A DNA stretch of 64,000 nt from a virus (lineage: Duplodnaviria > Caudoviricetes): positions 1 through 64,000 of IMG/VR virus record IMGVR_UViG_3300021136_000003; one strand, given 5' to 3'. This document shows, in pieces, positions 8,443 to 54,327 of this stretch. Position numbers and translations under genes: made by a program. The notes under the pieces were generated by a model. The model was not told the origin of the DNA. It ran no database searches and was given only the letters and a program-made list of their open reading frames with translations. How positions within the stretch are numbered: the first letter of the stretch is position 1; every line of letters starts with the position of its first letter.

Positions 8443-9153
8443 ATGCCGCAACCTTACGTCTATTTAATAACAAATTTCCTTACCGGTGAATTCTACTATG
8501 GATTGAGAGCCAAAAATGTTCAATTGGCAAGAACCCCTGAGGAAGATTTTTGGATTCACTATGAAACGTCATCAAAAAGAGTAAAGCAACTAATTCACCA
8601 ATATGGAAAGGATTCCTTTGACTTTGAAATCGTATTCCGGAATGATTCGTTCGACGCATGTTACCAAAAAGAACAGGAACTTATAGGGGCACATCTCAGT
8701 GATGAAAAATGCCTAAATATGTATTGTAGAGAAACCGGCAAATTCTCTACATATGGCAACAAACAATCTGATGCCACAAAAGAGAAAATCCGAGCCAAGG
8801 CTCTTGGCAGAGTTGTGTCACCTGATACGATAGCCAAAATAAAGCTATCGACAACTGGTGTTAAGAAGTCTTCCGAGTGGGTTTCTAACGCGGCGGCAGG
8901 GCGTACTGGCAAAAAGAATAAAAACCCTGCATGGAATAAAGGTCTCACTGGCCAACCAGGCCACCCGAACGCCCTTAAGGGCACCACTGGATTACGCCCA
9001 CACACTGAACAGTCAAGATCAGCCATTGGCAACGCTCTTCGGGGAATGAAACATGAGATTGTTACTTGTCCACATTGTGGCCAAACTGGTGGAAAACCCG
9101 CAATGCGTCAATGGCATTTTGATCATTGTAAATTCAAGAATTCCCAAAGGTGA
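8443..9153 (+). CDS. GIY-YIG homing endonuclease with NUMOD3-like repeats and C-terminal CPHC zinc ribbon
   Basis: YVY...FYYG; KEKIRAKALGR; CPHC...WHFDHCK; antisense to flanks. Confidence 0.8.
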   Translation: MPQPYVYLITNFLTGEFYYGLRAKNVQLARTPEEDFWIHYETSSKRVKQLIHQYGKDSFDFEIVFRNDSFDACYQKEQELIGAHLSDEKCLNMYCRETGKFSTYGNKQSDATKEKIRAKALGRVVSPDTIAKIKLSTTGVKKSSEWVSNAAAGRTGKKNKNPAWNKGLTGQPGHPNALKGTTGLRPHTEQSRSAIGNALRGMKHEIVTCPHCGQTGGKPAMRQWHFDHCKFKNSQR

Positions 9154-10622: not shown

Positions 10623-11402
10623 ATGTCAAATGTTTCCGGAGTATATCAGATAACTTTAATTGAAGATGGGCGAATCTATATCGGCAGTGCGGCCAATATT
10701 ACTCATCGATGGAAATGGCATCGAAATAGTCAGGTACAATTAATAGGCAAAATGATTAAGAAATATGGTAAGGAAGCGTTCTCCTTCAAAGTATTGGAGG
10801 AAGTAGAGCCCATTAAAGAACGACTAGAAGAAAGAGAACAATACTATTTGGATATGTTGCAACCGTTTCCCTGGAATAATAACAGAGGGTTCAATCTTGC
10901 GCCCGTTGCATATACTCCTCTGGGCATAAAACGGTCAGAAGAAACTAGACAAAAAATGAGGGACAGTTGGCATAAAAATCGTGGGGAAGCGTATTACAAA
11001 CAATTAAGTGAGCGATCTACCGGCGATACTAATCCTGCCAAGAGGCCCGAGGTTAGGGAGAAGATATCAAAGGCCAGGACCGGTCAGACCTGGAAAGAAG
11101 ATGCTGACAGAGTTATTCGTCATAAAGAAGCTCGGCTAGGAAAATCTTTTTCCGCTGCGGCAAAGTTAAATATGTCAGTGGCACAGCAGAAGAACAATAC
11201 TCGCTCACCAGAAGCCAAAGAAGCATTTTATTTGGCGCAGCGAAAGTTATATGAAATTACTGCACCTGATGGAGAGGTATTTCAAATATATAGTAGAGAA
11301 TTAAAGTTATTCTGCAAGGAAAAGAAGCTAACCTATTCAAATTTAATTAGCTCCAACGGAAAACCGTATAAAGGTGGATGGTTAGCGCGAAAAATCGGTT
11401 AA
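10623..11402 (+). CDS. GIY-YIG homing endonuclease with NUMOD3-like repeats
   Basis: SGVY...[17 protein letters not shown]; AAGGAG RBS; upstream TAAATA. Confidence 0.85.
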
Positions 11403-15426: not shown

Positions 15427-15539
15427 GTTATTTCTCCTATTAAGCAAGTTATGACTTGAGCAACCCGACTATCGGCATTGCTCATAAGTATTTATTATAA
15501 CAGAACCGTCTAAAATATTCTACTATTTAGGGCAAATAG

Positions 15540-15622
15540 ATAAATAAAAGTGAGAGCCACGGAAGTGAGATTCCCGCCCTCTCTAATACTACACAGGAGT
15601 ATCAGCATGATTATTTATCTAT
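15540..15622 (+). promoter_or_regulatory. Conserved structured leader of GIY-YIG gene (copy 1 of 4)
   Basis: ATAAATA-GT-stem-CRC-GGAA/TTCC-stem-TCTAA-hairpin containing AGGAG-TCAGC-ATG. Confidence 0.8.
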
Positions 15623-16104
15623 ACAAAAAGACCCACTCTATTACTGGGCTAAGTTATTTGGGGAAAACAACTCGGGACCCAATGAAGTACAAAGGATCAG
15701 GTACTTATTGGTTACGACATTTAAAAACCCACGGTAATACCGTAACTACCGAGATACTGAGAGAATGTTCCACTACAGACGAGGTTACTAAATGGGGAAT
15801 TTATTATAGTAATCTGTGGGAAGTAGTATCCTCAAGTAGTTGGGCAAACCTAAAACCAGAGTCCGGTGATGGTGGTAGTGCTGGTGGTGTTAACAAAAAA
15901 ATAGAAACAAAACGTAAAATCTCTAAGTCTATGTTAGGTCGCACTGCCCATAACAAAGGAGAGAAACAGCCACATCGCCCTCACTCACCGCGCAGTGACC
16001 GCGGGGTATGTCGTGGTCCTAAACCAGTAAAACAATGCCCACATTGTGGCCGAATTATTGATGTTGCGAACTATTCTCGTTATCACGGAGATAAGTGTAA
16101 ATAG
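15607..16104 (+). CDS. GIY-YIG homing endonuclease (Seg-like) with CPHC tail
   Basis: IYLY.KTH..TGL.YLG, YKGSG.YW, WANLKPE.G.GG; start revised to 15607. Confidence 0.85.
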   Translation: MIIYLYKKTHSITGLSYLGKTTRDPMKYKGSGTYWLRHLKTHGNTVTTEILRECSTTDEVTKWGIYYSNLWEVVSSSSWANLKPESGDGGSAGGVNKKIETKRKISKSMLGRTAHNKGEKQPHRPHSPRSDRGVCRGPKPVKQCPHCGRIIDVANYSRYHGDKCK

Positions 16105-16112
16105 TAGACTAC

Positions 16113-17312
16113 TTAGGGTAAACCAACCACTTTAGGATTCAACACCTGATCACGATTGATGTTTAGTTCGGTGACATTGTTGTCCCGATATTTCTTTGTG
16201 TGATACATATGGGTCATCAGCACCTTCTCAATCTCAGTGTGAAGACCTCGGGCACCTGTGTTCAGCTTGATTGTGTTGTCAGCAAGTTGTTCAATCGCAT
16301 CTGGAGTGAATGTCAGTGCAATGTTATCAACGCCTAGCAGGTATGTGTATTGCTCAATGTAGTTGTTCTTGACCTTTGTCAGAACTTCAATCAATTCTTC
16401 TTTGTTCAGGTTAGATACACTTGTTGTTGTGGTGAATCGTCCGATGAACTCTGGAATCATTCCGAACTTTGTCAGATCGTCAGGGGTCACCTGGGTAAGA
16501 TCACCTTCTTTATGTTTGTCTTTGATCATAGCACCGAATCCGATGCTGGTGCCGTTCAATCTGCTGTCAACAATCTCCTTGAGTCCGACAAAAGCGCCGC
16601 CGCCGATAAAGAGAATGTTCTTTGTGTTGACTTCAACCATGTCACCGCCGGGATGCTTACGACCCCCCGTAGCTGGTACACGACACACTGTTCCTTCGAC
16701 AAGTTTCAACAGTGCTTGCTGAACGCCTTCACCTGATACATCGCGGGTGATGCTTGAACTTTCACTCTTACGTGCAATCTTATCGATTTCGTCAACGAAG
16801 ACAATGCCGCGTTCAGCTAGGGCTTTGTCACCACCTGCTGCGTTCAACAACATGCTGATCATCGATTCAACATCATCACCGACATAACCTGCTTCGGTCA
16901 ATGACGTAGCATCAGTGACAACGAATGGAACCTTCAGATATTTTGCAACTGTCTTGGCCAGTAGAGTCTTGCCAGAACCAGTAGGGCCGATCAGCAGCAC
17001 ATTACCTTTGGTGATATCAAGATGCTTCGGTGGGTGATTCACTCGCTTGTAGTGATTAGCAATCGCCACGCTTAGAACCATCTTGGCGTTGTCTTGCCCG
17101 ATGATGTGATCGTCAAGAAACGACTTGATCGATTCCGGATCGTATCGGACCTCTTCTTTGTCTGTAGATTCGACTGAGGTGTCGTCCAGGATAAGAGAAT
17201 CGCATAGTTCGACACAATCGCTACAGATAGCGACGGACTCACCTACGATTAATTTTTTAACGGAATCTTTATGATTGCCGCAGAATGAACAATGACTGAT
17301 TTTGTCTGACAT
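16113..17312 (-). CDS. clpX: ATP-dependent Clp protease ATP-binding subunit
   Basis: CSFC zinc finger, [36 protein letters not shown] loop, GARGL. Confidence 0.95.
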
Positions 17313-36160: not shown

Positions 36161-37491
36161 AGTCCCTCGAATAATCCTGTTCCTGTGTTATTTTCTTCTG
36201 GCTCAAAGTCCGGATCTTTAGTCAGATAAGTATCCGTGTCCGTATAGATAATGCGGAACTTGTGCGCGTTAGTCAACACTGATTTAACATCATCAATACA
36301 AACGATTGAACGACCTAGCGCCTCGATGAAGTCACTATACTTCACCGTTTTCTCCAGACAAATCTTTGCGGTGTTGCTGTTAGATTGTTTACAGGTGAAT
36401 TCACTGAAACATTCATTCCATTTGCGAAACACCTTATTTTCTCGGGCCTGATGATATACCAGCGAACCGCCTTCATACCAAACCCACGCTTGAGTGGCAT
36501 GTTCATACCTATCCAGAATATCTTTAGCCATGTTCTTCTTGGTAGTGGTAAAGAAATACCCGTGATTGAAGTTTTGCGTCCAGCGTTGATTTTCTAAAGC
36601 ATAAGTCGGCATCTGAATCATCTGTTCCAGAAACGCAATTCCATAGCTTTCTACAGTGCTAGGATTGAACGCTACACGACAACTGGTGATGAAGTCAACT
36701 TTTTCTTGTCCGATGATACTGACAGCTATCTTGTAATCAGCACCCATCTTCTTCAGGCGTTCTTCAAACTTCTTTGCTCCGTTCGCATTAGTCATAACTC
36801 GCGCCGGCAACTTAGTCTGTTCAATCAAATCCAGATATAACTCGGGGTTCTTACCTTCTTCCCATCGTCCGATGAACAGCACACCCTCGCGAGGCGCGTG
36901 ATGTTCTTCTAGCAATCCCTTTTCCGGCAGCGGAATTGGCAGCACATACGCCTTGTCAATCTCCAGCGAGTTAAACTTACTCTGTGTGCCGATATAGATG
37001 TTGCTCATTTCCAGTTGCAGGCGCATCATTTCATTGACCCCGGGAAGAAACGGATTCTTTGTGTCTTTGAATATCTGACTTTCCAGATGAGTGTAGGCGA
37101 TGATCTGAATACAATCATCAAGTCCCATGGTTGATGCTACCTGAATGGTTTCGTATGTATTACATACTAGAGAGTCGTATATGTTCAGGCTAATCGCCTT
37201 GATAACTGAGTTGCGAAAGTTTGCCATCCGCTCGTAGCAAAAACTATCGCCGTACATGAAAATATTGCTATGTTCAGTATACGGCAACGATTCATCAGGA
37301 TATATAATAGTAGCATTTAATGATTTTACAAACTCGCTATCCTGTGGTTTCTTATCAGTTATGATATCGACCTTGATACCGTTAGCCGTCATCATTTCAA
37401 TAAAACTCTTGGCGAACTGTCCGATGCCACCGTGTGGCACCAGAGTCTGATAGCTTACCAGAAACCCAATCCGCTTAATGTATGTCCTCAT
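36157..37491 (-). CDS. GT-B (GT4-like) glycosyltransferase
   Basis: GGIG, LFIGRWEEGKN, PSTVESYGIAFLE. Confidence 0.85.
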   Translation of the reverse strand: MRTYIKRIGFLVSYQTLVPHGGIGQFAKSFIEMMTANGIKVDIITDKKPQDSEFVKSLNATIIYPDESLPYTEHSNIFMYGDSFCYERMANFRNSVIKAISLNIYDSLVCNTYETIQVASTMGLDDCIQIIAYTHLESQIFKDTKNPFLPGVNEMMRLQLEMSNIYIGTQSKFNSLEIDKAYVLPIPLPEKGLLEEHHAPREGVLFIGRWEEGKNPELYLDLIEQTKLPARVMTNANGAKKFEERLKKMGADYKIAVSIIGQEKVDFITSCRVAFNPSTVESYGIAFLEQMIQMPTYALENQRWTQNFNHGYFFTTTKKNMAKDILDRYEHATQAWVWYEGGSLVYHQARENKVFRKWNECFSEFTCKQSNSNTAKICLEKTVKYSDFIEALGRSIVCIDDVKSVLTNAHKFRIIYTDTDTYLTKDPDFEPEENNTGTGLFEGL

Positions 37492-38396
37492 GCCATGCTC
37501 ACATATAAATGTTGTTGTAAGTTTAACTTAAATCCATGATTTAAGCAATAGTTTCCGGTATACTCATGGTTCGCTTGATTTTCAGCAAGATTGAGTAGAC
37601 CCGGTTCCCAGAATGAAACTTTTTCGTCAACGGTTGATCGTTCGGCCATGGTGATCTGACCCTTCTCGGCCCGTAATAGTTTGATCTTTTGTGGGAAGTC
37701 GTTATACACATTCATCGGCGAACAGTAGATTTCCTTGTTAGGATTATTCGCCTTCCATGTGTGTGCCCATTCAGGTACTGAACTATAAGGACTTTCCTTA
37801 TTGTTCGACATGACAAATTTCAGACAGTCTGCTCGTTCTAGAATGAACTTAGACGGTGCCAGATACTTGATAGCTTTCCCGTTCTTTTCTGAACACTTTG
37901 GAGAGCAAACAACTGTGACACCTGAGGATAGCGTTCGATCTATCGTTCCATTAGTCTCAACTTGCACTGCTTTGAAATGCGGAATCTGATTGTCCAGAAA
38001 CTTAGACAGATTAGATTGTAGCAGTGGCTCACCGCCTGTTACCACAAGAACAATGTTCGGGTATGGTCCTAGCCGGCCGGCCTCAACTGTACTAGGTAGA
38101 TTAGGAAGGGCCCAGCGCGGTACCATATCAAACGGGTTCTCCATGTTCCAGTGATTGCAAACAGTATGATACATACTTGATTCAATCTCGGTGTATGTCA
38201 TCCAATTACCATCATCAAAGAAGGTATCACAGAATGAACAGGCCAGATTGCACTTACCCAGTCTGATAAACATCGCTGGCATACCTGCATATGGTCCCTC
38301 ACCTTGTAGAGTGAAAAACATCGAGGTCACATACAGCGAATCTGCTGGCGCATCTTTAAAATACTTCTGACCGATTATTTCATTTGTTCCAAACAT
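37488..38396 (-). CDS. queE: 7-carboxy-7-deazaguanine synthase (radical SAM)
   Basis: FTLQGEG...G.PA.FIRL..CNLACSFCDT, TGGEPLLQ, VETNG, SPK, LQQH. Confidence 0.9.
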   Translation of the reverse strand: MFGTNEIIGQKYFKDAPADSLYVTSMFFTLQGEGPYAGMPAMFIRLGKCNLACSFCDTFFDDGNWMTYTEIESSMYHTVCNHWNMENPFDMVPRWALPNLPSTVEAGRLGPYPNIVLVVTGGEPLLQSNLSKFLDNQIPHFKAVQVETNGTIDRTLSSGVTVVCSPKCSEKNGKAIKYLAPSKFILERADCLKFVMSNNKESPYSSVPEWAHTWKANNPNKEIYCSPMNVYNDFPQKIKLLRAEKGQITMAERSTVDEKVSFWEPGLLNLAENQANHEYTGNYCLNHGFKLNLQQHLYVSMA

Positions 38397-38866
38397 TAAA
38401 ATTCCTTATCTTCACGGTGACCTTGACGCATTGCCATATTGCTAGGTGTCTCTCGTACTTCTACTTTGCAACACCAAACTCGTTCTGCTTCTGCTACGCC
38501 ACAGTTCGGCAAAAATTCATTGTTCACATACCAATATAAAAAGTCAGCAAGACCTTCGCATCCTGTCTTTTCAACTTCAGTGATCTTTGCCAGACCAAGT
38601 GTGCCAAGATTCTTGATGACCTCATAATGTGGGTCATCTTGCGCCAACAGCATACAGTGATCAAACTTATCCTCGAGGAAATCTTTCAGAGGTCGCAACC
38701 CGCCATAATCAAAACACCAGTTGCGGGCATCAAGTGTGTCACATTCAAATTCAAACTTGAAAGTAAGAGCATAACCGTGAATGAGGTTACAGTGAGAATC
38801 TGAGCGCCATTGACGGTACGCAATCGGGGCAAGATGTGAATATTCTTTTGTGCTTATATATTTCAT
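38396..38866 (-). CDS. queD: 6-carboxytetrahydropterin synthase
   Basis: CNLIHGY, FDH, CE.LA, VRETP.N. Confidence 0.9.
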   Translation of the reverse strand: MKYISTKEYSHLAPIAYRQWRSDSHCNLIHGYALTFKFEFECDTLDARNWCFDYGGLRPLKDFLEDKFDHCMLLAQDDPHYEVIKNLGTLGLAKITEVEKTGCEGLADFLYWYVNNEFLPNCGVAEAERVWCCKVEVRETPSNMAMRQGHREDKEF

Positions 38867-39576: not shown

Positions 39577-40043
39577 TTGGTTTCCTTTGATAGTTCTGAT
39601 TGGTATACACGTTGGCGTAGATTACTGCTGCTGAAACTGTGGTCACGCCCATTAAAGACGATTTCGATGTTGCGGCGCATACAGATATCTCTTCCGGTAA
39701 ATGGAACGTCTTTATACTCTACACCCAAAATACGAACATCAACTGGCAGAATAAGAAGCAGGTCTTCGAGGTCCTTCTCAGTCTCATAGATAACAACTTC
39801 ATCCACATTACGATTCGTGCCCAGCTGTATCTGACGCTCAACAATGCTCTGCACCGGCTTGTTTTTAATACCCGGACGATCAATAGTCGGATCAGTTTGT
39901 AGTCCAGCGATTAGATAGTCACAGTGATTCTTTGCTTCAGCAAGCATTGCCACGTGACCTGCATGAAAAAGATCCCATGTACTGAAAGTTATTCCTATTA
40001 TTTTACCTTGCTTTTTTAATTTTTTCATTTCATTTAAAACCAT
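39573..40043 (-). CDS. Cytidylyltransferase (TagD-like)
   Basis: STWDLFHAGH, CDYLI.GLQTD, ER, R.H..SSS.LR. Confidence 0.85.
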   Translation of the reverse strand: MVLNEMKKLKKQGKIIGITFSTWDLFHAGHVAMLAEAKNHCDYLIAGLQTDPTIDRPGIKNKPVQSIVERQIQLGTNRNVDEVVIYETEKDLEDLLLILPVDVRILGVEYKDVPFTGRDICMRRNIEIVFNGRDHSFSSSNLRQRVYQSELSKETK

Positions 40044-40750
40044 TTTTTTACCTCTTTGCTTAAACACTCTGATTTACCTGACATACATAACTTCGGTATA
40101 TATTTAAAATCCGTATTCATTTTTAAAATATTTTGTTCTCGTAGGAAACATTCATATAGAGATCCGTTGACTATCCAGCATACTTTACCACCATTATTTT
40201 TTATAAAATTATAATACCTGGACCGGAGATTTATCGTAATCCCCACTTTATAAAACTTAGTACCATCTATATCGTTTAGCTCCAGAAAATAAAGTACGGC
40301 CGGCTTACTTTTAAGTTCTGGTTGTTTGTCAAACACCTTATCACAATATTTTCCTGGGCCCGAACTGGCAGTACATATCTTACACCCTGCCCCATTTTTA
40401 TGAAGTTCTGGTTTTTGCCAAAACTCGCCATGCTTAGGACAAAACATCCTCATCTTTATACTGTTACGAATATAAGTTGCATCATCATAAAAATAGTATC
40501 CATTATGAGTTTGCAAAAACTGTTCCTTTATATTATCCCACTTACACGCAGCGTTGTCACCTTTGCATTTGGGACATCCGTGTCCTCCTAAATGATCTGA
40601 TGGCTTCTGTGAAAAATCACCATGTTCAGGGCAAGTTATATTTACCTTTTGTAACATTGCAATGTAAATAACATTTTCATATTCGTATTTTCCGGAATGA
40701 ATTTTAAAGGCTCGTTTAATAAATTCCTCTTTCGTTGTTCTTTTTGTCAC
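40034..40750 (-). CDS. Homing endonuclease-like protein (CPxHG zinc repeats plus GIY-YIG-like C-terminus)
   Basis: Two CPxHG.F.Q.P..H..G.GC repeats; LYF...FYKVGIT; AT-rich. Confidence 0.75.
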   Translation of the reverse strand: MTKRTTKEEFIKRAFKIHSGKYEYENVIYIAMLQKVNITCPEHGDFSQKPSDHLGGHGCPKCKGDNAACKWDNIKEQFLQTHNGYYFYDDATYIRNSIKMRMFCPKHGEFWQKPELHKNGAGCKICTASSGPGKYCDKVFDKQPELKSKPAVLYFLELNDIDGTKFYKVGITINLRSRYYNFIKNNGGKVCWIVNGSLYECFLREQNILKMNTDFKYIPKLCMSGKSECLSKEVKKWF

Positions 40751-41257: not shown

Positions 41258-41938
41258 TCATATACTACCTTGTCTGGCTATTTGATAGAACTCTGCCCGG
41301 GCAGCGGGATCAGTTTTGAATCCGCCACCAAGCTTGCTGGTCACTGTTGAACTACCGGTATCTTCAACACCGCGGGAAGCAACACATAGATGCTCTGCTT
41401 CAATCATAACCGCAATGTCATCTGTTTCCAAAATGAATTGCAGGGCATGATAAATCTGTTCAGTTAGTCGTTCCTGAATCTGAGGGCGCTTACTGAAATA
41501 TTCAACTACACGATTAATTTTACTCAGTCCAAGTACCTTTTCTTTAGGTACATACGCGACTGTCGCTTTTCCTACGATAGGAAGTATGTGGTGTTCGCAA
41601 GTAGAATACACAGCAACTCCGCGTTCGACGACCATTTCATCGTATTTCATTTTGTTCTGGACAGTGGTACATTTAGGGAATGCTTCAAAATCAAGCCCCC
41701 ATAGCACTTCGTTTACCGCCATTTTAGCCCAGCGCTTTGGAGTTTCGGCGAGGGAATCATCAGTGAGATCCATTCCGAGAACCATCATGATTTCAGTGAA
41801 GTATTTTTCAATAACATCAATCTTGTCTTTTCGATCAAACGGTGTTGGCAATGTGGGAGTTTCAACTCCACATTTGACCAGATGTTCGTGAACTTGTTGA
41901 CCCAATTCTGGATCCGTCTTCTGTTTATTGTATGACAT
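41258..41938 (-). CDS. folE: GTP cyclohydrolase I
   Basis: L.ETP.R, STCEHH, GLSKINR.V, RPQIQERLT, H.C...RGV; start MSYNKQ. Confidence 0.95.
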   Translation of the reverse strand: MSYNKQKTDPELGQQVHEHLVKCGVETPTLPTPFDRKDKIDVIEKYFTEIMMVLGMDLTDDSLAETPKRWAKMAVNEVLWGLDFEAFPKCTTVQNKMKYDEMVVERGVAVYSTCEHHILPIVGKATVAYVPKEKVLGLSKINRVVEYFSKRPQIQERLTEQIYHALQFILETDDIAVMIEAEHLCVASRGVEDTGSSTVTSKLGGGFKTDPAARAEFYQIARQGSI

Positions 41939-42027
41939 ATGTACCTTCCTTTGTGATGGTATGTTTTTGATTTTTGAGACCATTGTGTCTCATACTTATT
42001 TATCTGTTGTATCGGCGTTTGTAATTT

Positions 42028-42264: not shown

Positions 42265-43420
42265 GGGTATACTTCCGATAATCTTTAGTCATTCGCAGGC
42301 CTGAGTTGTCGCCTTCAAAAATATCACAGATACGATCAATGGTTTTGTCATTGTAATCGCTGATCTTGCCCATGTTCTCATGCGGGTATGACAGCAGACC
42401 ATACAGCTTGTTCATCGCATCAGGGATGCTCCAGGGAACATATAGTCGTTCAAAGTCATTGGCGAATGTTTCTGGGAACGAACGATACGCAGGATACAGA
42501 ACGTTGCAGCCAAGAGTATCACCTTCACTTACGGTGTTGCTGACCCAATCTTGAAGCGCACAGTTGAATACTACGCGGGTATTGTTCAGCAGATCATAGT
42601 ATTGATTCTTTTCCAAGTCTTCGTATACAGTCAGCATACCACGCGCCTGCATGTCGCGGGTTCGTGCCATGTAAGATTCATTGTTAGACTTCAACTTGCC
42701 ACCGCTGAACACACAGAACTCAACTTTTGAGTTGGGCAACTCCTGATGCCATGCTTCGATCATGTCCATGTAGAAGTCAGGTTGCTTCTCCTGATCCCAT
42801 CGTGCTGAGAAAGCTACGCGAGGTAGACGTTCATCAAACGGGATAACTTCTTTCACTCGACTAAGCACTTCTGCCTTGCCGAATGCCAGACCACTGATAT
42901 TGTAGATAGGCGCTTCCCATCCCGCAATCTTCATATGGGCGACCATTTCTTCGTTGGTCGCAAGTACGCCATCTACAAACGAGTCCAACATCTTTTCATA
43001 ATGACCCATCCACTTAGACATACCCCATACATGAACAAAATCATCAGGATCAATGGACTGAGCAAGACAGCGAACATAAATCCGAGGGCGCTTTGATTGG
43101 TCGACCTGTTGAAGTATATAGGGTAAAGACTCCATGCCCGGTTGAAACATATCCTCAAAGTAGACCACATCATCGCTTGTCACCTCTCCTGCTTTCATCA
43201 GTTTGACCAGATTCATCAACTGACTCATGCCGAAATAACTACGACCATGCGCGTCCAGAACTTGTCCCGTTACAATAGCTTGATCGTTACTGAGAGTCTC
43301 CCCCGGCACCAGAATATAATCAATGTTACGACTCTTGAATACTGCTTCATTCCAGTCTTGGAGTTGAAAGGTGTATCTACTCTTATATTTTTCGAGTCCC
43401 ATATATATCAATTTTCGCAT
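42248..43420 (-). CDS. GT-B glycosyltransferase
   Basis: FSARWDQEKQP and conserved GT-B C-domain layout. Confidence 0.75.
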   Translation of the reverse strand: MRKLIYMGLEKYKSRYTFQLQDWNEAVFKSRNIDYILVPGETLSNDQAIVTGQVLDAHGRSYFGMSQLMNLVKLMKAGEVTSDDVVYFEDMFQPGMESLPYILQQVDQSKRPRIYVRCLAQSIDPDDFVHVWGMSKWMGHYEKMLDSFVDGVLATNEEMVAHMKIAGWEAPIYNISGLAFGKAEVLSRVKEVIPFDERLPRVAFSARWDQEKQPDFYMDMIEAWHQELPNSKVEFCVFSGGKLKSNNESYMARTRDMQARGMLTVYEDLEKNQYYDLLNNTRVVFNCALQDWVSNTVSEGDTLGCNVLYPAYRSFPETFANDFERLYVPWSIPDAMNKLYGLLSYPHENMGKISDYNDKTIDRICDIFEGDNSGLRMTKDYRKYTRESKY

Positions 43421-44190
43421 AGTTGTTCCTTAAATTCTTTAAACTTATTATACAGCATTTCTACTGTCATGTCACTCTTATTGGACTTCCTTCTATTGTC
43501 AATTCCATTAATAAGTCGCAGATTTATCACCGATCCTATAATCTCTGCGGGTATCTTATTCGCCCAGCCGTCAGTTATGGATACAATATGGTCCAAATGA
43601 ATGTCCTTGTTTCGTTGTTGACCGGCGAAATATTTATTAAAGCTTTGGTTTGTTTCTCGCCACACTGCTTTTCGGTATAACTCATGCTCACCTATCTCAC
43701 TGGGATCACGACATTGTCCATTCGCTATTTTAGTTAGCCAGGCCTTCTCGTATCCACATGTCCCGCATCCTGTTCCTGATAGTAAAGTGTTAGGTTTAAT
43801 CATAAATGGTCCATGATCCGGGCATACTACTTCTATTTTCGTATGAGCGTTTTTATATGGAGTTTTAAATTCATATTCAGGAAACAACTGGTGCATTTGT
43901 TCTAAAAATTCGTCGGGAGTCTTTTTGAGACTTCCGCCGCATTTGGGACATCCTCCACCCTTCATGTCATTTGGCCATTTAAAGAAATATCCATGCTCAC
44001 GGCAGCCAACTTCAATTTTAGTAGAACAGTTGACATATTGAACCCGATCCAACAAATACCTATCACCATGATAAGATTGTATTTCTGTGATTATCTGTTC
44101 AGTTGTTTTTCTAAATGGCGAAGGACCTTTTTTAACACCTCGGATTTTACTAATTCGTTTTTCAACATGATCCGGTGATTGTTTACTCAT
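43408..44190 (-). CDS. HNH homing endonuclease with CxxHG zinc repeats
   Basis: CREHG, CPDHG, HLDHIVSI...NLRLI...NRRKSNK; AGGAG RBS. Confidence 0.85.
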   Translation of the reverse strand: MSKQSPDHVEKRISKIRGVKKGPSPFRKTTEQIITEIQSYHGDRYLLDRVQYVNCSTKIEVGCREHGYFFKWPNDMKGGGCPKCGGSLKKTPDEFLEQMHQLFPEYEFKTPYKNAHTKIEVVCPDHGPFMIKPNTLLSGTGCGTCGYEKAWLTKIANGQCRDPSEIGEHELYRKAVWRETNQSFNKYFAGQQRNKDIHLDHIVSITDGWANKIPAEIIGSVINLRLINGIDNRRKSNKSDMTVEMLYNKFKEFKEQLCEN

Positions 44191-45884: not shown

Positions 45885-47429
45885 TTATTCTCCTAAAGCC
45901 TCTGTGATGGCATCATCAGCATCTTCAATAACTTCGTCAATTTCTGGTTCAGCTTCTTCGGTGAACAGAGCGTTGAATTGTGTCAGTGAGTTTACTGTCT
46001 TTTTACCGCTGAATCCTTGACCAGCTTTGAACTGCATCCAATACCTGGAATACTTCTCAACTAGATCAAGAGATTTTTGACGATCTTTCTGGGCAAAGAC
46101 TTCATCGATGATCTTCCCAATTTCAACGTGTTCGAAGGTGTTGTTCATCAACATACTTGGGATGACACCTGAATCATATTGACGATTTGCTTCTTGAACT
46201 GCGACCATATGCTGATAAACATTGTGACCCTGAATCAGCGTATAGCTGAGAGTGTCCCAAGATGTTTTTGTTTCTTTACCGTGTTGTCCTAGAAAGCCTT
46301 TGCCACGATAGCAAAGATCCTTAAGTAACATTTTATCAGTTATTGGACTGTCTGTAAAGGCTTTATGGATACCTTCAGCCAAAACAGCATCACGAAACTT
46401 CCGTGTATCTGTTGAGTAAGCCTTCTTCTCCGCGGTCTTTTCCATGGAGTAGGTCCATTTCTTGTCGTGCTTGAAAGAGTTATTGTTGTAAGCCAGACCC
46501 TTAGCAGCACCGAAGAACGGGCTGGCACAGTCGAAGCTGATAGTCAGATCAGGGTTGTGATACTTTCGGACAGCACGTTGAACATCACTGAATAACACAG
46601 CGTATTCTACTATGGATGTGCCCAGGCAGTGAATCCAGTCATGCTTACCTTGTTCTAACAATCCATCGTGGATAAAGTTAATCAGCCGGATAAGGAACAG
46701 ATGAATGTCAATCTTAGTCTGACCTCCCATAGCCCAACCGTTGAAGTGATTATCGGGATAGACCTTTGGGTCACAATACTTCTTCATCTCCTGATACCAT
46801 GACTCGCTTTGAGTGTGGTTCAGTCCCTGCATCACATTCAGAAACTTACACTTACCCGTTCTGTTTGCGATAAAGTATTCATTGTTGATGTGCGTGGCAG
46901 TGATAGCGTCTTGAATAGTCTTGATGCCATGTAGCGAGTTACCGTTCTTATCCTTCATCCCGTATGTGCGAAGCGATTGAGACGGAATATCAAGACACAT
47001 GCCGTAATCCGCAATATCTTCCATCCAGGCTAATACTTCCCGTCGTTTCTGCATGGCCTTAGGACAGTTAGGATCCTTCCAATCAGCCGGCCATTGCCCC
47101 TTAAGGATTTGAAACCCGCCGGAGTCAGCAAGAATAAAAGAACCCGGCTCTCGCTTAACGACAATACTCTCGGAAGGATTTGTTTTGTATGAAGTTAAAT
47201 CAGCATGGCCTGCACTATACAATGCCCATTTATATGGGAATAATGCCTGTTTACTATTGAGAAAGTTTAGAACTTCCGTATCCGGTATACCAATGGGAAG
47301 TCTTGCTTTCTCGAAATAGTTATTGCCCTCACGCTGTTTGCCTAATCCAGATATAAAAAATGAAGATAAGGCCGGCAAAAATAAGGCCCATTCTGGATTT
47401 TGTGTTGCGGTTAAGTTTACTTGAGTCAT
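45885..47429 (-). CDS. dpdA: TGT-fold guanine transglycosylase, DpdA-like
   Basis: ADSGGFQ, LDIP, VMQG, GWAMGG, IHCLG, SFDCASP; context with folE/queD/queE. Confidence 0.75.
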   Translation of the reverse strand: MTQVNLTATQNPEWALFLPALSSFFISGLGKQREGNNYFEKARLPIGIPDTEVLNFLNSKQALFPYKWALYSAGHADLTSYKTNPSESIVVKREPGSFILADSGGFQILKGQWPADWKDPNCPKAMQKRREVLAWMEDIADYGMCLDIPSQSLRTYGMKDKNGNSLHGIKTIQDAITATHINNEYFIANRTGKCKFLNVMQGLNHTQSESWYQEMKKYCDPKVYPDNHFNGWAMGGQTKIDIHLFLIRLINFIHDGLLEQGKHDWIHCLGTSIVEYAVLFSDVQRAVRKYHNPDLTISFDCASPFFGAAKGLAYNNNSFKHDKKWTYSMEKTAEKKAYSTDTRKFRDAVLAEGIHKAFTDSPITDKMLLKDLCYRGKGFLGQHGKETKTSWDTLSYTLIQGHNVYQHMVAVQEANRQYDSGVIPSMLMNNTFEHVEIGKIIDEVFAQKDRQKSLDLVEKYSRYWMQFKAGQGFSGKKTVNSLTQFNALFTEEAEPEIDEVIEDADDAITEALGE

Positions 47430-47435
47430 ATGAAT

Positions 47436-47464
47436 ATTATATAGGATTAATAGAAGATAGTCAA
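47436..47464 (-). promoter_or_regulatory. Sigma70-type promoter, 6 nt from dpdA-like ATG
   Basis: TTGACT-17-TATAAT. Confidence 0.8.
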
Positions 47465-47565
47465 CATTATTAGCAAAGCCAACTATTATTTGCCCGCACT
47501 GCGGAAAAACAGGGAAAGGTAGCGGAATGATTGCCTATCATTTTGATAAGTGTAGATTCCGCTAA
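47461..47565 (+). pseudogene. Homing-endonuclease C-terminal remnant
   Basis: ICPHCGKTGKGSGMIAYHFDKCRFR*, matching the tails of 8443, 15607 and 48839; in-frame stop upstream. Confidence 0.75.
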
Positions 47566-47573
47566 TCTCTCGA

Positions 47574-47939
47574 TCATACTTTTACTTCTGGTTTGACCAG
47601 TGCCACCACCATGTCTATTTTGTGTTTAATATCGTTTTGCTGATCAAGCAAGTATTTGACTGCGGGATATTCTTTAGACAATCCAAGAATATACGCCTCA
47701 TTTTCCATCTTCGTAATGGCCCATGTAATCGCTGCCTCAGCATCAGGACTTAATCCGATCATCGGGACGGCGCTGCTCTGTCCGCTCCAGCCAGCGCCGT
47801 CAAATACTTCGGTATTCTGATTGCTGGGATTAAACCGCACCATTCCTGTCATCGGATTATTGTTCATAGGGAAATACGGGTAACTAGGGTGCCCGCCGTT
47901 AACGATGATAGACCCGGTGCCGCATACAGCCTTGATCAT
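47574..47939 (-). CDS. Hypothetical phage protein
   Basis: ORF. Confidence 0.7.
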   Translation of the reverse strand: MIKAVCGTGSIIVNGGHPSYPYFPMNNNPMTGMVRFNPSNQNTEVFDGAGWSGQSSAVPMIGLSPDAEAAITWAITKMENEAYILGLSKEYPAVKYLLDQQNDIKHKIDMVVALVKPEVKV

Positions 47940-48667
47940 TTTGCTTGTGCTGGTAGTAGATAAGTGTAAACTGCGACACCGCTGTCAACCGTGATTTTCA
48001 TTGCTCCAGCATCAGCGATATAGACCTTCTTGTCACCGACTAGGTCCATGATGCCAAGAAACTGCTTGACCGGCCACATCCAGGTGCGACTTAGTGATCC
48101 CTTAACAGTAGGCTGAAACACGAAGTTACCAGAGTGAGTGCTTGCGTCACCGAAGTAAATCTTCAGATCGCCATTCTCGACTTTGGTGACAAAGTTTGCT
48201 TCTTCTGAGTTAGCTGATGCTTGCTTTTTCAGACGCATGATACCAGCGATAGTTGGTTCAAACTCGACGTTCCAGGTTGCACCAGCAAAAGTGACTGCCT
48301 TGACCTTTTCGTCAACGATAGACTTCAACATCAGTCGATAATCGTTGATGAAGTCGCCGGTCTTCGTTTCAAAGTGAATACTACTTGGCACATCTGCTCC
48401 GTCTTTCTGTACACGGGTGACGTTAACGGTTGATGTATCATCGTAGTCATCAAAGCCCAAAATAGTTTTCAGCTTGCCCAGATTAGGCATGCCAAATACG
48501 CCGATAAAATCAGCGACTGGCTTGGCGAATGTTCCGCTGACGATAACAGACTTATCTTCTGCTACGGCGTTGATAGTTGTTTCCTTATCAGTTCCGGTAA
48601 CCTTGATAAGTTCTACGCAGCCCAGACCGTGCGTGTGTTCGATTAAATCTTTGAGGACATCCTTCAT
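47936..48667 (-). CDS. Putative DNA polymerase sliding clamp-like protein
   Basis: 243 aa, beta-rich two-domain pattern ending YLLPA; next to polymerase; inference only. Confidence 0.45.
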   Translation of the reverse strand: MKDVLKDLIEHTHGLGCVELIKVTGTDKETTINAVAEDKSVIVSGTFAKPVADFIGVFGMPNLGKLKTILGFDDYDDTSTVNVTRVQKDGADVPSSIHFETKTGDFINDYRLMLKSIVDEKVKAVTFAGATWNVEFEPTIAGIMRLKKQASANSEEANFVTKVENGDLKIYFGDASTHSGNFVFQPTVKGSLSRTWMWPVKQFLGIMDLVGDKKVYIADAGAMKITVDSGVAVYTYLLPAQAK

Positions 48668-48710
48668 ATTTTTTCCTTTATGTTAAACTATTTACATAGC
48701 GTTAACGTGT

Positions 48711-48739
48711 ATTATATAGGAATATTTTACACAAGTCAA
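48711..48739 (-). promoter_or_regulatory. Sigma70-type promoter
   Basis: TTGACT-17-TATAAT. Confidence 0.75.
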
Positions 48740-48769
48740 TGACTTAAATGCCCAAGTGATGATAAAGGG

Positions 48770-48850
48770 ATAAATAAAAGTGAGAGCCACGGAACAACGA
48801 ATTCCTGCCCTCTCTAACGCTACAAAGGAGCAATCAGCATGACTATTTAT
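48770..48850 (+). promoter_or_regulatory. Conserved structured leader of GIY-YIG gene (copy 2 of 4)
   Basis: Same architecture as 15540-15622. Confidence 0.8.
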
Positions 48851-49564
48851 TATCTCTATGTTAAGACCCATAAAATAACAGGTCTTAAATATCTCGGCTA
48901 CACAGGAAAAGCAGACCCATATAAATACCTCGGTTCCGGTGAGTATTGGAAAACACATCTCAAAAAACATGGAAAAGAAATCACGACGGAAATATTACAT
49001 GAATGCCAATCTAAAACAGAAATCAAAGATCGCGGGTTGTATTACAGCGAATTATGGAATGTAGTGGATGCCTGTGATGTCCTGGGCAAAAAGACTTGGG
49101 CCAACCTAAAACCTGAAGCCGGGGAAGGTGGTGATTGTGGTCCTAAAGGACGAGCGGAAATTTCACGCAAAGGTAAAGGACGGACACATTCTGATCTAAC
49201 TAAGCGTAAAATGAGCTATTCACATACTGGTACCATAATGTCTGGCATTACCAAGGAAAAGATAGGACTTAAAAACGCCGGCAAGAAACACACGGATGCC
49301 TTCTGTGATTTACATCGAGGGCCCAATAACAAGTTTTTTGGTACAGGCCCGTTTAACGGAAAAACTCACTCCATCGAGACTAAGGAGAAGATTAGTGCCA
49401 AAAATACAGGGAGAAAGCACACCGAGGAGGCCCGTCTAAACATAAGCAAAAAGATGGCCGGAATAAAAATGGCTGAAGTGACTTGTCCCCATTGCTCCAA
49501 AGTAGGAGCAGGAGGGGCAATGAAACAATGGCACTTTGATAAGTGTAAGTTTAACCGAAGGTGA
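48839..49564 (+). CDS. GIY-YIG homing endonuclease (Seg-like), NUMOD3-like repeats, CPHC tail
   Basis: IYYLYVKTH..TGLKYLG, YLGSG.YW, WANLKPE.G.GG, HS.ETK.KIS. Confidence 0.88.
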   Translation: MTIYYLYVKTHKITGLKYLGYTGKADPYKYLGSGEYWKTHLKKHGKEITTEILHECQSKTEIKDRGLYYSELWNVVDACDVLGKKTWANLKPEAGEGGDCGPKGRAEISRKGKGRTHSDLTKRKMSYSHTGTIMSGITKEKIGLKNAGKKHTDAFCDLHRGPNNKFFGTGPFNGKTHSIETKEKISAKNTGRKHTEEARLNISKKMAGIKMAEVTCPHCSKVGAGGAMKQWHFDKCKFNRR

Positions 49565-50798
49565 ATAGAGAATCAACTGTAGAGTTGGTGTCTGTATTGG
49601 AACGTAAGTCCCAGTTCATAACACCGAGTAAGTTGTCGATCTTTTCATCAACTAACGTCTTTTCCATTAATAGATTGTCGAACGGAAGTTCTTTGAACCA
49701 TTCTGGCAATCTCATTTCATCAACTGGGTATGCAATGCTGGTGTAACCCAATGGGTTGTTTTTCAGCTTACATACCACAATCTTCATGCCATCCATGATC
49801 TTCATTGAGTAGTTGTCGTTATGGACTCGACGCAGCCAGTTCCAGTTGATAGCAGCCCGAACGTGACCAGGCATGTTTGCCCTGCCTGTTCGACTTTTCT
49901 CTTCCGCTTCACCATACATCGTCAGCTTGTTAACTGACTTAGGCGAACCCTTTGTCCATCCGTCTTGGTTGCCCAATTCAGTTTTGAACGTCTTGATAAC
50001 CTCAATGATATCCTGACGATCTTTACCATCAAGGACCATCTCCAACACTCGCATCAGGAACTCTTGAACATACTTAGGTGTGTCAGCGCGTTTCAGATCA
50101 AGACCCATAGCCTTGATTTGACCAATGCCGAATCTGACACCGTTCTTCTTAGCCTTGTCCATGTCATACTGATCCAGACGCTTGCCTTCTTTGTCGTAGA
50201 TGTTCAGAGCATACCGCTTCTTAGTGATAAACAACGACCGATCAGCAACCAGTTCTCGACCTGCTTTGATGATTTCGCCGTTCTTGCGTGGAGCATGAAA
50301 CGACTTCTCCATAAAGCCAGCGAACCCGTCATTGATCTGATCAGCGATATTGTCGTACAACTGAATAGCAACGTCTTTGCTCCAAGTCATTGTGCTAGCA
50401 GCAACTTCATCCTTCATCAGAGGCCATGCAGAGAAATAACAAGAGTCAGTGTCACCGTATACGATTGCTTGCCCGGTGTAGTCATACTCTCCGGTGACGA
50501 TTTCATTGATGTGTGCGCTCATGTGCTTCACAATCTGCCTGCCTGATAGAGTAACCGATTGACCGATACGCTTATCGTAGAAACGACAGTGTTCATTCAA
50601 CAGGGCACCGTAAGCTGAGTTCAACAAAATCTTTCTGACCAGTTGTCGCTTGTCCCAATAATCTGTAAATTCCTTTATTTTCTCCTGTGAAGCGACTATC
50701 TTCCCATTTTTAATCACAAGGTTATGCAACTTCATATATTGTCGCAATTCCGATACATTTCTGGTTTTTACCAAGTGTTTAATATGTTCTACATCCAT
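49551..50798 (-). CDS. Family B DNA polymerase, C-terminal fragment
   Basis: KILLNSAYG (motif B), YGDTDS (motif C), KKRY, thumb region. Confidence 0.92.
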   Translation of the reverse strand: MDVEHIKHLVKTRNVSELRQYMKLHNLVIKNGKIVASQEKIKEFTDYWDKRQLVRKILLNSAYGALLNEHCRFYDKRIGQSVTLSGRQIVKHMSAHINEIVTGEYDYTGQAIVYGDTDSCYFSAWPLMKDEVAASTMTWSKDVAIQLYDNIADQINDGFAGFMEKSFHAPRKNGEIIKAGRELVADRSLFITKKRYALNIYDKEGKRLDQYDMDKAKKNGVRFGIGQIKAMGLDLKRADTPKYVQEFLMRVLEMVLDGKDRQDIIEVIKTFKTELGNQDGWTKGSPKSVNKLTMYGEAEEKSRTGRANMPGHVRAAINWNWLRRVHNDNYSMKIMDGMKIVVCKLKNNPLGYTSIAYPVDEMRLPEWFKELPFDNLLMEKTLVDEKIDNLLGVMNWDLRSNTDTNSTVDSLFTFG

Positions 50799-50822
50799 TT
50801 TTGCATAATCTTTCTGTCAATG

Positions 50823-50838
50823 ATAAATAGTATTTATA
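50823..50838. promoter_or_regulatory. Inverted pair of late-type promoter boxes
   Basis: ATAAATA-G-TATTTATA: one box on each strand, between the pol C-fragment and endonuclease starts. Confidence 0.6.
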
Positions 50839-50847
50839 GGAGATAAT

Positions 50848-51546
50848 ATGGGGTTAAATAAAAAATACAATGAAAGCACTTACTCTGCTGCCGTAAAAAA
50901 ACTCGGTTACACCGCGTTGGAACCTTATAATGGTATCACCTTTAAAATAAATCATATGTGTCATACCTGTAACAATATTTGGAATACGCAACCCAGGCAA
51001 GTCTTGAATGGAATAGGTTGTCGTCATTGTTTCCAGTTGAGAGTTCGCAAACCGATTGACTTGGTAAAGACGAGTTTATTGCCCGGTCAATGGGAAATAG
51101 TTGACGATAACGAATACAAAAACTCATATTTACCGCTGCATTTTAAACACCATTGTGGTCATATAGTAAAGTCTTCCCTCGAGGTAATATTACGCACTGA
51201 CGAACACCGCAAACGTTGTCCGGTTTGCACCCCACATAAAATAAGAGAAGGAACGTGGTCAAAACCAGTCGAACATGATGGCCGTAAATATTCATCAACC
51301 TTGGAGGCAACGTGCTGTGAATATCTTATTGGTAAGTTTGGATTATCGGATATCATATTACAAAAAGAATATTCGGTTGATGATAGAAGAACAGCGGATG
51401 CATATATTAAAAGTTTGGATACTTATGTAGAAGTTAGCAGTATAGGAAAAGAATGGTATTTAGAAAGGATTTACAGAAAACGGGATCTTGTAAAAAACTT
51501 CATCTTCGTGTCATCCCTTTCTCAACTACGGACTATGATTAAGTAA
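50848..51546 (+). CDS. Putative homing endonuclease (zinc ribbons plus PD-(D/E)xK-like C-domain)
   Basis: CHTC, CRHC, CPVC; S.LE, ADAYI...YVEV; lies between the polymerase halves. Confidence 0.7.
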   Translation: MGLNKKYNESTYSAAVKKLGYTALEPYNGITFKINHMCHTCNNIWNTQPRQVLNGIGCRHCFQLRVRKPIDLVKTSLLPGQWEIVDDNEYKNSYLPLHFKHHCGHIVKSSLEVILRTDEHRKRCPVCTPHKIREGTWSKPVEHDGRKYSSTLEATCCEYLIGKFGLSDIILQKEYSVDDRRTADAYIKSLDTYVEVSSIGKEWYLERIYRKRDLVKNFIFVSSLSQLRTMIK

Positions 51547-53474: not shown

Positions 53475-53533
53475 GATAAATTCCTTTAAAGATTCATTAT
53501 ATAACGAATAAATCATAAAAGCAAGTAGTTTGG

Positions 53534-53615
53534 TATAAATAGATAGTGCGGTTCGCTGGTGATCAGACCCTAACCGCTCTAACGCTTTTGAGGAGCAATC
53601 AGCATGACTATTTAT
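53534..53615 (+). promoter_or_regulatory. Conserved structured leader of GIY-YIG gene (copy 3 of 4)
   Basis: TATAAATA; GCGGTT/AACCGC stem; TCTAA; AGGAGCAATCAGCATG. Confidence 0.8.
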
Positions 53616-54251: not shown

Positions 54252-54327
54252 CTTTATTTTAGCTTAGGTTTACCGAATACAGTTTCGCGGATAGTCTGTC
54301 CGGTCTGTAGTTTGCGCTCGTATAATC

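Follow-up and report, generated by a model that had tools for sequence, protein, structure and literature searches.

The stretch of DNA analysed here (the window) comprises 64,000 nucleotides, positions 1 to 64,000 of the IMG/VR virus record IMGVR_UViG_3300021136_000003 (Duplodnaviria; Caudoviricetes), and bears four copies, c1 to c4, of a repeated cassette that runs into the start of a homing endonuclease gene (Table 1). A first-pass annotation had described an ATAAATA motif, an outer stem, an inner stem with a variable loop, TCTAA, a small hairpin holding AGGAG and then CAGC before ATG, and all four copies were found at the places it gave with their parts in that order. The stems pair as it claimed: the outer stem (P1) occurs as GAGAGC/GCCCTC (with one A.C), GCGGTT/AACCGC and GTAGTT/AACTAC, the inner stem as GGAA/TTCC or GGT/ACC, and a small hairpin is present at the Shine-Dalgarno site in the window copies. 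The unexpected feature of this cassette is a selected structure on the strand antisense to the nuclease gene, lying between two convergent boxes of the late-promoter type.

Table 1. Positions in the window of the cassette copies, their parts, the predicted antisense RNAs and the nuclease genes (folding energies in kcal/mol)
Feature	Position	Strand	Details
Cassette c1	15540-15618	+	Covariance model match 77.1 bits, E 1.6e-12
c1, putative promoter box	15540-15546		
c1, P1/P2 hairpin	15552-15581		
c1, predicted sense start	15552		G
c1, Shine-Dalgarno hairpin (P4/P3)	15583-15605		
c1, start codon	15607-15609		
c1, inverted box	15612-15618		TATTTAT
Predicted cis-antisense RNA of c1	15540-15606	-	-17.3 antisense vs -11.7 sense; predicted 5' end, the G complementary to the last C of CAGC; terminator-like stem-loop 2, then ACUUUUAUUUAU
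Homing endonuclease gene of c1	15607-16104	+	165 amino acids; GIY-YIG-like, IYLYKKTH..TGLSYLG; phrog_314, E 2.4e-9
Cassette c2	48770-48850	+	Putative promoter box 48770-48776; P1 from 48782; start codon 48839; model E 3.1e-12
c2, inverted box	48844-48850		
Predicted antisense RNA of c2	48770-48838	-	-16.8 antisense vs -10.5 sense
Homing endonuclease gene of c2	48839-49564	+	241 amino acids; GIY-YIG-like; NUMOD3, E 3.2e-10; phrog_314, E 2e-22
Cassette c3	53535-53615	+	Putative promoter box 53535-53541; P1 from 53548; start codon 53604; model E 2.2e-10
c3, inverted box	53609-53615		
Predicted antisense RNA of c3	53535-53603	-	-14.7 antisense vs -14.0 sense
Homing endonuclease gene of c3	53604-54251	+	215 amino acids; YTYAYLR..PYYIGKG; NUMOD3, phrog_15526, phrog_314
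Cassette c4	62491-62568	-	Putative promoter box 62568-62562; P1 from 62556; start codon 62502-62500; model E 2.2e-12
c4, inverted box	62491-62497		Plus-strand ATAAATA
Predicted antisense RNA of c4	62503-62568	+	-14.9 antisense vs -12.1 sense
Homing endonuclease gene of c4	61831-62502	-	223 amino acids; N-terminus of c1/c2 type

Cassette copies and the nuclease genes that follow them

The record to which the window belongs is a 121,109-bp fragment, estimated to be 35% complete, of a T4-like jumbo phage; its genes include rIIA, rIIB, an HNH-split family-B DNA polymerase, DNA ligase and clamp loader, together with tail sheath, tail tube, ClpX-like, ClpP-like and 7-deazaguanine pathway genes. Eight cassette copies were found in it, the four outside the window (73992+, 78041-, 110777+ and 117247+) being located with simple patterns. 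A covariance model (R1), built from an 85-sequence alignment made with MAFFT (A2), recovered all eight copies (E 6.8e-15 to 2.2e-10), and no other of the 39 candidates scored reached E ≤ 1. Five of the copies lie antiparallel to their neighbours; the other three run in the same direction as theirs, and their box adjoins the stop codon of the gene upstream. The window copy c4 is co-directional with its neighbours, and its box overlaps the stop codon of the upstream gene.

Unrelated nuclease families are found behind the cassette. In the window, the c1 nuclease gene is antiparallel to both of its neighbours and gave no Pfam match; the c3 nuclease represents a second GIY-YIG-like type, and the c4 nuclease had no Pfam or PHROG match at the thresholds used. 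Across the cassette loci, three types of GIY-YIG-like open reading frame (ORF) were distinguished by their motifs (YLYVKTH..TGLKYLG, YVYAYLR..PYYIGKG and YIYKW..WYIGS). HNH_3 domains were also recognized, in a further copy of the record (c7, E 2.9e-10) and in the ORF of locus L063 (E 9.4e-14), where the domain starts at residue 10, as was PF01844 HNH in ORFs of the MIFIDNKY..HHIIPKSLGG type (for example in locus L103, E 6.7e-5); a few further ORFs are of unknown type. The first four codons are common to these unrelated families. The first-pass annotation took the spread over two GIY-YIG subtypes as a sign that the element was not the by-product of a single gene duplication. That conclusion holds; the mention of two subtypes understates the range, since HNH genes carry the cassette as well as GIY-YIG-like ones.

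No Pfam GIY-YIG domain was detected in the proteins of the YLYVKTH..TGLKYLG type. Their label comes from phrog_314, a family that they share with the Pfam-positive paralogues at 8443 and 10623, and from a motif characteristic of GIY-YIG proteins. These two paralogous genes (8443-9153 and 10623-11402, both on the plus strand; SegE_GIY-YIG and GIY-YIG in Pfam) lack the structured cassette, having in front of them only a box with a short leader.

The border of the inserted unit could be read at c1. In the closest relative (Hsp20 88% identical) the gap between the ClpX-like gene and hsp20 measures 105 nt and contains no nuclease gene. When this empty site is aligned with the window, homology resumes 3 nt before the ATAAATA box, which fixes the boundary of the insertion. 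The cassette thus travels with the nuclease gene, as had been proposed. An imperfect 24-bp direct repeat (19 of 24 positions identical) flanks the insertion at 15513-15536 and 16099-16122; its right copy now provides the ClpX-like gene with its last codons and stop, while the left one is the original, displaced. A more distant relative bears a cassette-bearing nuclease gene at the same site and in the same orientation, again with the junction at the box. For c4, the five relatives found were either identical or too divergent downstream of the gene for an empty-site comparison, and the 44.6-kb record of the closest relative, when searched with the c2-c3 region, yielded no match but its own cassette copy. 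The element is best explained as a portable unit of about 80 bp for the control of expression, with which free-standing homing endonuclease insertions of T4-like jumbo phages begin at their 5' end.

Two further observations were made at these sites. In one relative (L460:2530-2620, plus strand) the homologue of the window gene at 62565-63821 is 1795 nt long, compared with 1254 nt, and within it a complete cassette is found, with ATGACTATTTAT behind it; a cassette-bearing nuclease gene thus apparently lies inside this gene rather than after it. Next to c1, the hsp20 5' untranslated region (UTR) holds a hairpin, GAGCAA..TTGCTC (15458-15483, minus strand), just downstream of an overlapping TATAAT/ATAAATA box (15489-15500, minus strand). 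This hairpin is kept by compensatory changes in many relatives (GTAGAT..GTCTAC, GTGGAT..GTTCAC) and may be a separate regulatory RNA, for example a thermosensor.

Pattern scans of IMG/VR returned at least 121 loci for the box with AGTG and CTCTAA, at least 120 for the commonest P1/P2 core and at least 125 for CTCTAA with CAGCATGNNTATTTAT; the cassette samples used below were drawn among the matches listed. Five long cassette-bearing records, of which those of 348.7 and 524.6 kb have been rated as complete, contain 4, 2, 1, 1 and 5 copies. Rfam gave no match over the whole window at the gathering threshold, and at E ≤ 1 no match on the cassette in six cassette loci (one weak Chloroflexus-1 match fell elsewhere in locus L127); the element, in which the first-pass annotation had recognised no named family, is indeed not one. 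Ribozyme, riboswitch and group I intron fragment had been considered and were dropped, there being no Rfam support for them; the nuclease genes are moreover free-standing and often on the strand opposite to their neighbours. Among GenBank phages, a megablast search with c1 and its flanks found no match, nor did a blastn search with the 87-nt c4 cassette (E ≤ 0.01) against 50,697 phage records, a collection that may omit close kin of the window. The cassette is abundant in uncultured jumbo phages and absent from Rfam and from the GenBank phage records searched. No description of the cassette motif was found in the literature searched, and the available part of the LIMEstone paper (PMC3296691) contains nothing on such a leader.

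Window DNA was present in 24 DNA sequencing runs, all freshwater by label. The contigs of four runs, examined over 47000-64000, showed no deletion joints and had loose ends at repeat borders inside the cassettes; a single joint between c2 and c4 in opposite strands is a repeat artefact.

Helices and the strand on which they pair

The first-pass annotation described a covarying structured element, and the covariation is well founded. In an alignment of 87 model-fitted matches from 100 sources (A3), 14 pairs belonging to P1, R:Y, P2 and P3 were scored, and 94.9% of cells were paired compared with 73.3% in shuffled alignments. The covariation score was 0.598 against 0.190 after shuffling, a value reached by none of 500 shuffles; slid controls on the same alignment were 25-53% paired, and the MAFFT alignment A2 gave the same covariation picture. 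A separate sample, anchored on the downstream half of the cassette, yielded 36 outer-stem haplotypes (115 parsed out of 117 sequences). Covariation above that of the shuffles and this number of haplotypes together argue that the helices are real.

Covariation alone does not reveal the strand, and it was the wobble pattern that reversed the obvious reading. P1 and R:Y in the 85 sequences of A2 contained 32 A.C, five C.A and one G.T. In the independent downstream-half sample, for which the parser weighted both kinds of mismatch equally, the P1 cells comprised 671 Watson-Crick pairs, 19 A.C and no G.T, the A.C cells being spread over 12 haplotypes and four stem positions. When 19 pairs were counted in 86 sequences, 1424 cells were Watson-Crick, 188 of the A.C type, six of the G.T type and 16 other, so that 87.5% were canonical if read sense and 98.7% if read antisense; a counting tool gave 87.6% for the sense alignment, 95.8% for the antisense and 98.3% for stem-loop 2 (the antisense form of the P1/P2 hairpin). 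As the non-Watson-Crick cells are nearly all A.C or C.A on the coding strand, fully canonical helices are obtained on the complementary strand alone, and the folded RNA apparently comes from the strand opposite to that of the nuclease gene. A mutational bias behind the A.C excess was rejected, given that copies occur in both orientations; by inference, C-to-T deamination of the sense strand during sense transcription would also yield G.T and not A.C.

Structure prediction points the same way. RNAalifold was run on the reverse-complement alignment with 66 of the 85 reference sequences (15 with long insertions and four near-duplicates having been dropped), and it added a helix, CUGA/UUAG, around the small Shine-Dalgarno hairpin. 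This helix has an invariant G.U and A-U/G.U variation, its neighbouring pair is U.G in 35, U-A in 22 and C-G in seven sequences, and a compensatory change within it was seen in the record copy c8; it appears on the antisense strand only. All eight record copies fold better antisense (-14.7 to -20.9 kcal/mol) than sense (-10.5 to -16.6 kcal/mol), always into the same two stem-loops on the antisense strand. Over 86 members the mean for the full region was -16.8 kcal/mol antisense and -12.0 kcal/mol sense, and for the hairpin alone the difference between the strands had a Wilcoxon p of 5e-6.

The first-pass annotation inferred a cis-regulatory RNA or protein-binding element. On this reading the structure would be a leader of the nuclease mRNA, where a 5' stem-loop would stabilise the late transcript or bind a protein and the small hairpin would modulate access to the Shine-Dalgarno sequence. 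Watson-Crick covariation fits either strand, P3 covaries with the bases just 3' of GGAG, and hairpins at the ribosome-binding site (RBS) are a known means of control for T4-type homing endonuclease genes (PMC2988022). However, the 188 A.C-type against six G.T-type cells are difficult to reconcile with pairing in the mRNA, as is the weaker sense fold of every record copy. At the Shine-Dalgarno site only the 3-bp P3 pairs on the sense strand; P4 with its Y:A extension would need an invariant A.C and a C.A mismatch in 41 of 86 sequences. The structured element is thus probably not a leader of the nuclease mRNA, a role which we consider distinctly unlikely.

The wobble asymmetry is by itself no proof of RNA, because G.T is also the best-tolerated mismatch in DNA hairpins. 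A hairpin in single-stranded DNA of the non-coding strand, or the inverted boxes themselves, could serve as a protein-binding or recombination site for mobility or cassette shuffling. Such an element would suit a cassette that unrelated ORFs have in common and that ends abruptly on its 3' side at TATTTAT, the branching of assembly graphs at 53577, 53603 and 53615, and the direct repeat around the c1 insertion. Copies are found in both orientations, however, so no constant replication strand would be exposed; a cruciform needs both strands paired, which the A.C cells oppose, and the promoter box, Shine-Dalgarno sequence and U-tract give a complete transcriptional reading without any DNA structure. 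A function at the DNA level therefore appears highly improbable.

Two facing boxes and a putative antisense RNA

ATAAATA occurs 39 times in the window against 12.55 expected, a number reached by none of 100 shuffles. In the whole record 25 of 66 occurrences lie 8-90 nt upstream of an ORF start on the same strand, compared with 2-11 of 23-48 for permuted 7-mers. The genes preceded in this way include those for tail-tube and head-closure proteins, as well as other plus-strand genes with short unstructured leaders. Given its enrichment and its place before ORF starts, those of the tail-tube and head-closure genes among them, ATAAATA behaves like a promoter motif. In T4-like phages the late promoters have been given as NATAAATA and TATAAATA (PMC2984593), and judged by sequence the motif is a putative promoter box of the T4 late type and not a part of the RNA, as which it had been annotated. 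No conserved -35 element was found upstream of the box, where positions -16 to -13 vary, and none of the listed sigma-70-like sites coincides with a cassette box.

A second box is contained in the nuclease gene itself, since its start, ATG-NNT-ATT-TAT, reads ATAAATA on the opposite strand. In 92 of 108 sequences chosen by the P1/P2 core alone, TATTTA follows CAGC at a distance of exactly 5 nt; in another 11 it is displaced by no more than 1 nt, and in five it is missing. At the level of motifs, this inverted ATAAATA/TAAATA at a fixed distance in 92 of 108 constitutes a candidate outward promoter in the 5' coding region. The upstream box is conserved to a matching degree in the same sample (81% for the first A, 89-97% for TAAATA).

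The codons concerned are restricted at their synonymous sites. Codon 2 encodes eight different amino acids and yet ends in T in 105 of 109 sequences, the share of NNT in the genome being 31.5%. Codon 3 is ATT in 100 of 109 and never ATC or ATA, where ATT makes up 38% of the Ile codons of the genome; codon 4 is TAT in 94 and TAC in 11 of 109, with TAT at 62% of the genomic Tyr codons. In CAGCAATGATATTTAT, which reads MIFI and has its start codon displaced by one base, the frame differs and yet the box remains at its usual distance from CAGC. Synonymous sites frozen in this manner, and a box that holds its place across frames, argue for a constraint on the nucleotides rather than on the protein.

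T4 late promoters have their box at -13 to -6. In the cassette, 107 of 115 members and all eight record copies have 3-5 nt between the box and the first helix downstream of it. At a spacing of 5 nt the predicted late start coincides with the first base of P1, which would give the nuclease mRNA a flush 5' stem-loop and agrees with helices formed in that mRNA. In 35 of the 115 members, however, the spacing is 3 nt; transcription that starts as in T4 would then cost the sense RNA part of P1, but the antisense hairpin would stay complete, which speaks for the antisense reading.

A model can be proposed with two late-promoter boxes in inverted orientation, facing one another over a distance of about 66 bp. 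Of these, the left one would drive the nuclease mRNA, with a predicted start at the first G of the outer stem, and the right box, in codons 2-4, would drive a convergent antisense RNA from the G of GCUGAU. This RNA is predicted to form two stem-loops, the first having CUGAUGCU/AGCGUUAG as its stem and displaying the anti-Shine-Dalgarno sequence CUCCUU in the loop, the second being the covarying P1/P2 hairpin with its two conserved bulged G. Stem-loop 2 looks like an intrinsic terminator because ACUUUUAUUUAU, the complement of the sense promoter, comes next, and the antisense tail after the hairpin is dominated by U at eight of ten positions (65-97% each). One and the same stretch of DNA would then serve as sense promoter and encode the U-tract of the antisense terminator. 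By pairing with the whole 5' UTR the antisense RNA may lower the translation of the nuclease or the stability of its mRNA; repression is the simplest function for it since it is complementary to the entire 5' UTR. The terminator might also halt antisense or read-through transcription at the edge of the insertion, insulating the upstream neighbour. That convergent late promoters would produce both the nuclease mRNA and an antisense RNA of about 65 nt repressing it is a proposal to which we give even chances; the probable role of the cassette, as modelled, is that of a small antisense brake on nuclease expression.

Several points weigh against this antisense model. The sequencing runs containing window DNA include no RNA run, and no late sigma factor or gp55-like match was found among the 93 ORFs of the roughly 35%-complete record. 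The inverted box is imperfect, with the full TATTTAT in 74 of 108 sequences and TATTTA absent from five, and its conservation could come partly from the Ile-Tyr of GIY-YIG proteins. The predicted start sites are taken from the geometry of T4 promoters and not from data on this phage. A simple terminator scan of 47000-64000 did not flag the cassette hairpins, whose stems are interrupted by bulges. As regards folding, the sense hairpin is slightly stabler in the fully Watson-Crick consensus variant and the sense strand wins in 30 of 86 members; the top P2 pair shows both kinds of wobble (five G.T-type and four A.C-type), and the z-scores of single antisense sequences are modest (-0.5 to -2.4).

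The strand asymmetry and the U-rich tail would also fit if the hairpin were only an antisense-oriented terminator or insulator at the insertion border, with no antisense promoter and no regulatory small RNA. The cassette would then be a late-promoter counterpart of the PeSL promoter-terminator cassettes, which are a precedent for mobile promoter-terminator units (PMC2839356; PMC4122927). The antiparallel orientation of five of the eight record copies is consistent with such a role, and hairpin and tail do occupy the outermost part of the inserted DNA, next to the promoter of the neighbouring gene. Nevertheless, a terminator would explain neither the frozen synonymous sites spelling an inverted box at a fixed distance, nor an anti-Shine-Dalgarno stem-loop that is canonical on the antisense strand only, nor the two conserved bulged bases. 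At the three co-directional copies no oncoming gene transcript would be expected, and a terminator placed after the whole antisense of the nuclease gene gives that gene no protection. A role restricted to termination or insulation is considered unlikely.

The two boxes are exact complements and both are conserved, which would also suit temporal control of the I-TevI type, where AUAAAUA in a read-through transcript pairs with UAUUUAU and closes the leader, late transcripts escaping this closure. The same logic has been established for I-TevI, segB and Aeh1 mobE (PMC2988022). A 7-bp helix composed entirely of A-U pairs and closing a multi-helix junction would however be weak, and its pairing cannot extend; the five antiparallel copies would receive no sense read-through, and the antisense wobble pattern would have no explanation. 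It seems hardly conceivable that the cassette works in this manner.

Returning to the antisense model, the predicted RNAs of different copies have CUGAU..CUCC..UUAGAG in common, and the copies could therefore repress each other's mRNAs in trans. A single antisense-RNA governor, common to unrelated nuclease families (at least three GIY-YIG-like and two HNH types) and cross-repressing in trans, would amount to copy-number-dependent control, and is put forward here as a tentative and rather doubtful extension. If true, this control (multicopy inhibition) would span all cassette-bearing nucleases of a genome and possibly those of co-infecting phages, and the cassette would be an exchangeable module letting new nuclease genes plug into the control. 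Homing endonuclease genes need to be expressed sufficiently to spread and yet not so as to harm the phage. The cassette suggests a different, modular solution to this problem compared with the mRNA hairpin and late promoter of T4-type phages. If confirmed, it would represent a new class of phage small RNA and a compact module of about 80 bp with a defined architecture, combining promoter, terminator and antisense RNA.

Other features of the surroundings may be noted. Between c2 and c3, whose nuclease genes border the polymerase locus, an HNH gene (50848-51543, plus strand) splits the family-B DNA polymerase into two ORFs (49551-50795 and 51526-53214, both on the minus strand); it has a short leader and a palindromic box pair, ATAAATA-G-TATTTAT, at 50823-50837. 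Two near-perfect sigma-70-type promoters (48739-48711 and 47464-47436, minus strand; TTGACT, 17 nt, TATAAT; 11 of 12 matches) precede minus-strand genes, one of them adjoining c2, which places early- and late-type signals side by side. QueE-like, QueD-like and GTP cyclohydrolase genes (37488-38393, 38396-38863 and 41258-41980) suggest 7-deazaguanine DNA modification, and cassette-free HNH genes (40034-40654 and 43408-44187) are interspersed among them. Outside the window, an ORF of 3565 codons (L376:342-11036, minus strand; about 84342-95036 of the record) has almost no family match, the sole one being phrog_22593 (function unknown) at its C-terminal end.

Relation to known regulatory cassettes

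Nuclease genes of T4-like phages are already known to be controlled by RNA structure. I-TevI, I-TevII, I-TevIII, segB and Aeh1 mobE possess an RBS-sequestering hairpin with an embedded late promoter, and in this T4-type paradigm late transcripts lack the 5' arm of the hairpin and are hence translatable (Edgell, Gibb and Belfort 2010, PMC2988022). The cassette resembles these systems in its association with nuclease genes of T4-like phages (free-standing or intron-borne in the known cases), in a late promoter of the TATAAATA type (putative in the cassette) just upstream, in an RNA structure at the translation start and in the tight limit on nuclease expression predicted for it. It differs from them, as far as the available account describes them, in that its box lies upstream of all helices and not inside a hairpin, its main hairpin is without a Shine-Dalgarno sequence, and its pairing is coherent on the opposite strand only.

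Conserved hairpins in the 5' UTR of free-standing endonuclease genes were reported from metagenomic 'fractured genes' by Dassa et al. 2009 (PMC2677866). Like the cassette, they precede endonuclease genes of the GIY-YIG and other families in phage-like DNA from the environment, TATAAATA often being present, and the hairpin belongs to the invading unit. Unlike the cassette, the motifs shown there (e.g. ..TTACACTTCCTATAATG) and the folds are of the promoter-in-hairpin type. Neither CTCTAA nor CAGCATG was found in the part of the supplement that was searched (Supplementary Figure S4), which argues that these hairpins are a different sequence family.

The nearest precedent for a portable unit of promoter and stem-loop, to judge from the published descriptions at hand, is provided by the PeSL composite promoter-terminator cassettes of T4-like phages (Arbiol et al. 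2010, PMC2839356; Comeau et al. 2014, PMC4122927). Both are short repeated cassettes that supply a promoter, stem-loop, Shine-Dalgarno sequence and start codon to variable ORFs and can mediate modular exchange. The PeSL promoters are early and sigma-70-like, whereas the cassette has a late-type box without a -35 element. The PeSL stem-loop stops co-directional transcription from upstream, whereas that of the cassette lies downstream of the box with its U-tract on the other strand: the sense strand after the cassette hairpin reads CTCTAAYGCT, and the U-rich tail is found on the opposite strand.

Cis-antisense control of the nucleases or toxins of mobile elements is familiar from IS10 RNA-OUT/RNA-IN and from type I toxin-antitoxin systems such as hok/sok. 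In systems of this kind an outward promoter inside the 5' coding region directs a structured RNA of about 60-70 nt that covers the RBS, with possible copy-number-dependent repression of a potentially harmful enzyme. By analogy, these would be the nearest functional relatives of the predicted antisense RNA. The cassette has no sequence relation to them; its promoters would be phage late-type boxes, its terminator U-tract would double as the sense promoter, and one and the same cassette serves unrelated nuclease families.

Within T4-like phages, cyanophage S-PM2 has an antisense RNA, CfrI, whose sequence overlaps a homing endonuclease gene with which it is co-expressed (Millard et al. 2010, described in PMC2984593). 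It thus parallels the antisense RNA over a homing endonuclease gene that is here predicted from sequence. CfrI, however, measures about 225 nt, spans the endonuclease gene and psbA, is not a repeated 5' cassette and, as far as that description goes, has no known structure or sequence in common with the present element. Taken with these systems, the cassette belongs among the regulatory RNA cassettes of phage homing endonuclease genes, a kind that is already known.

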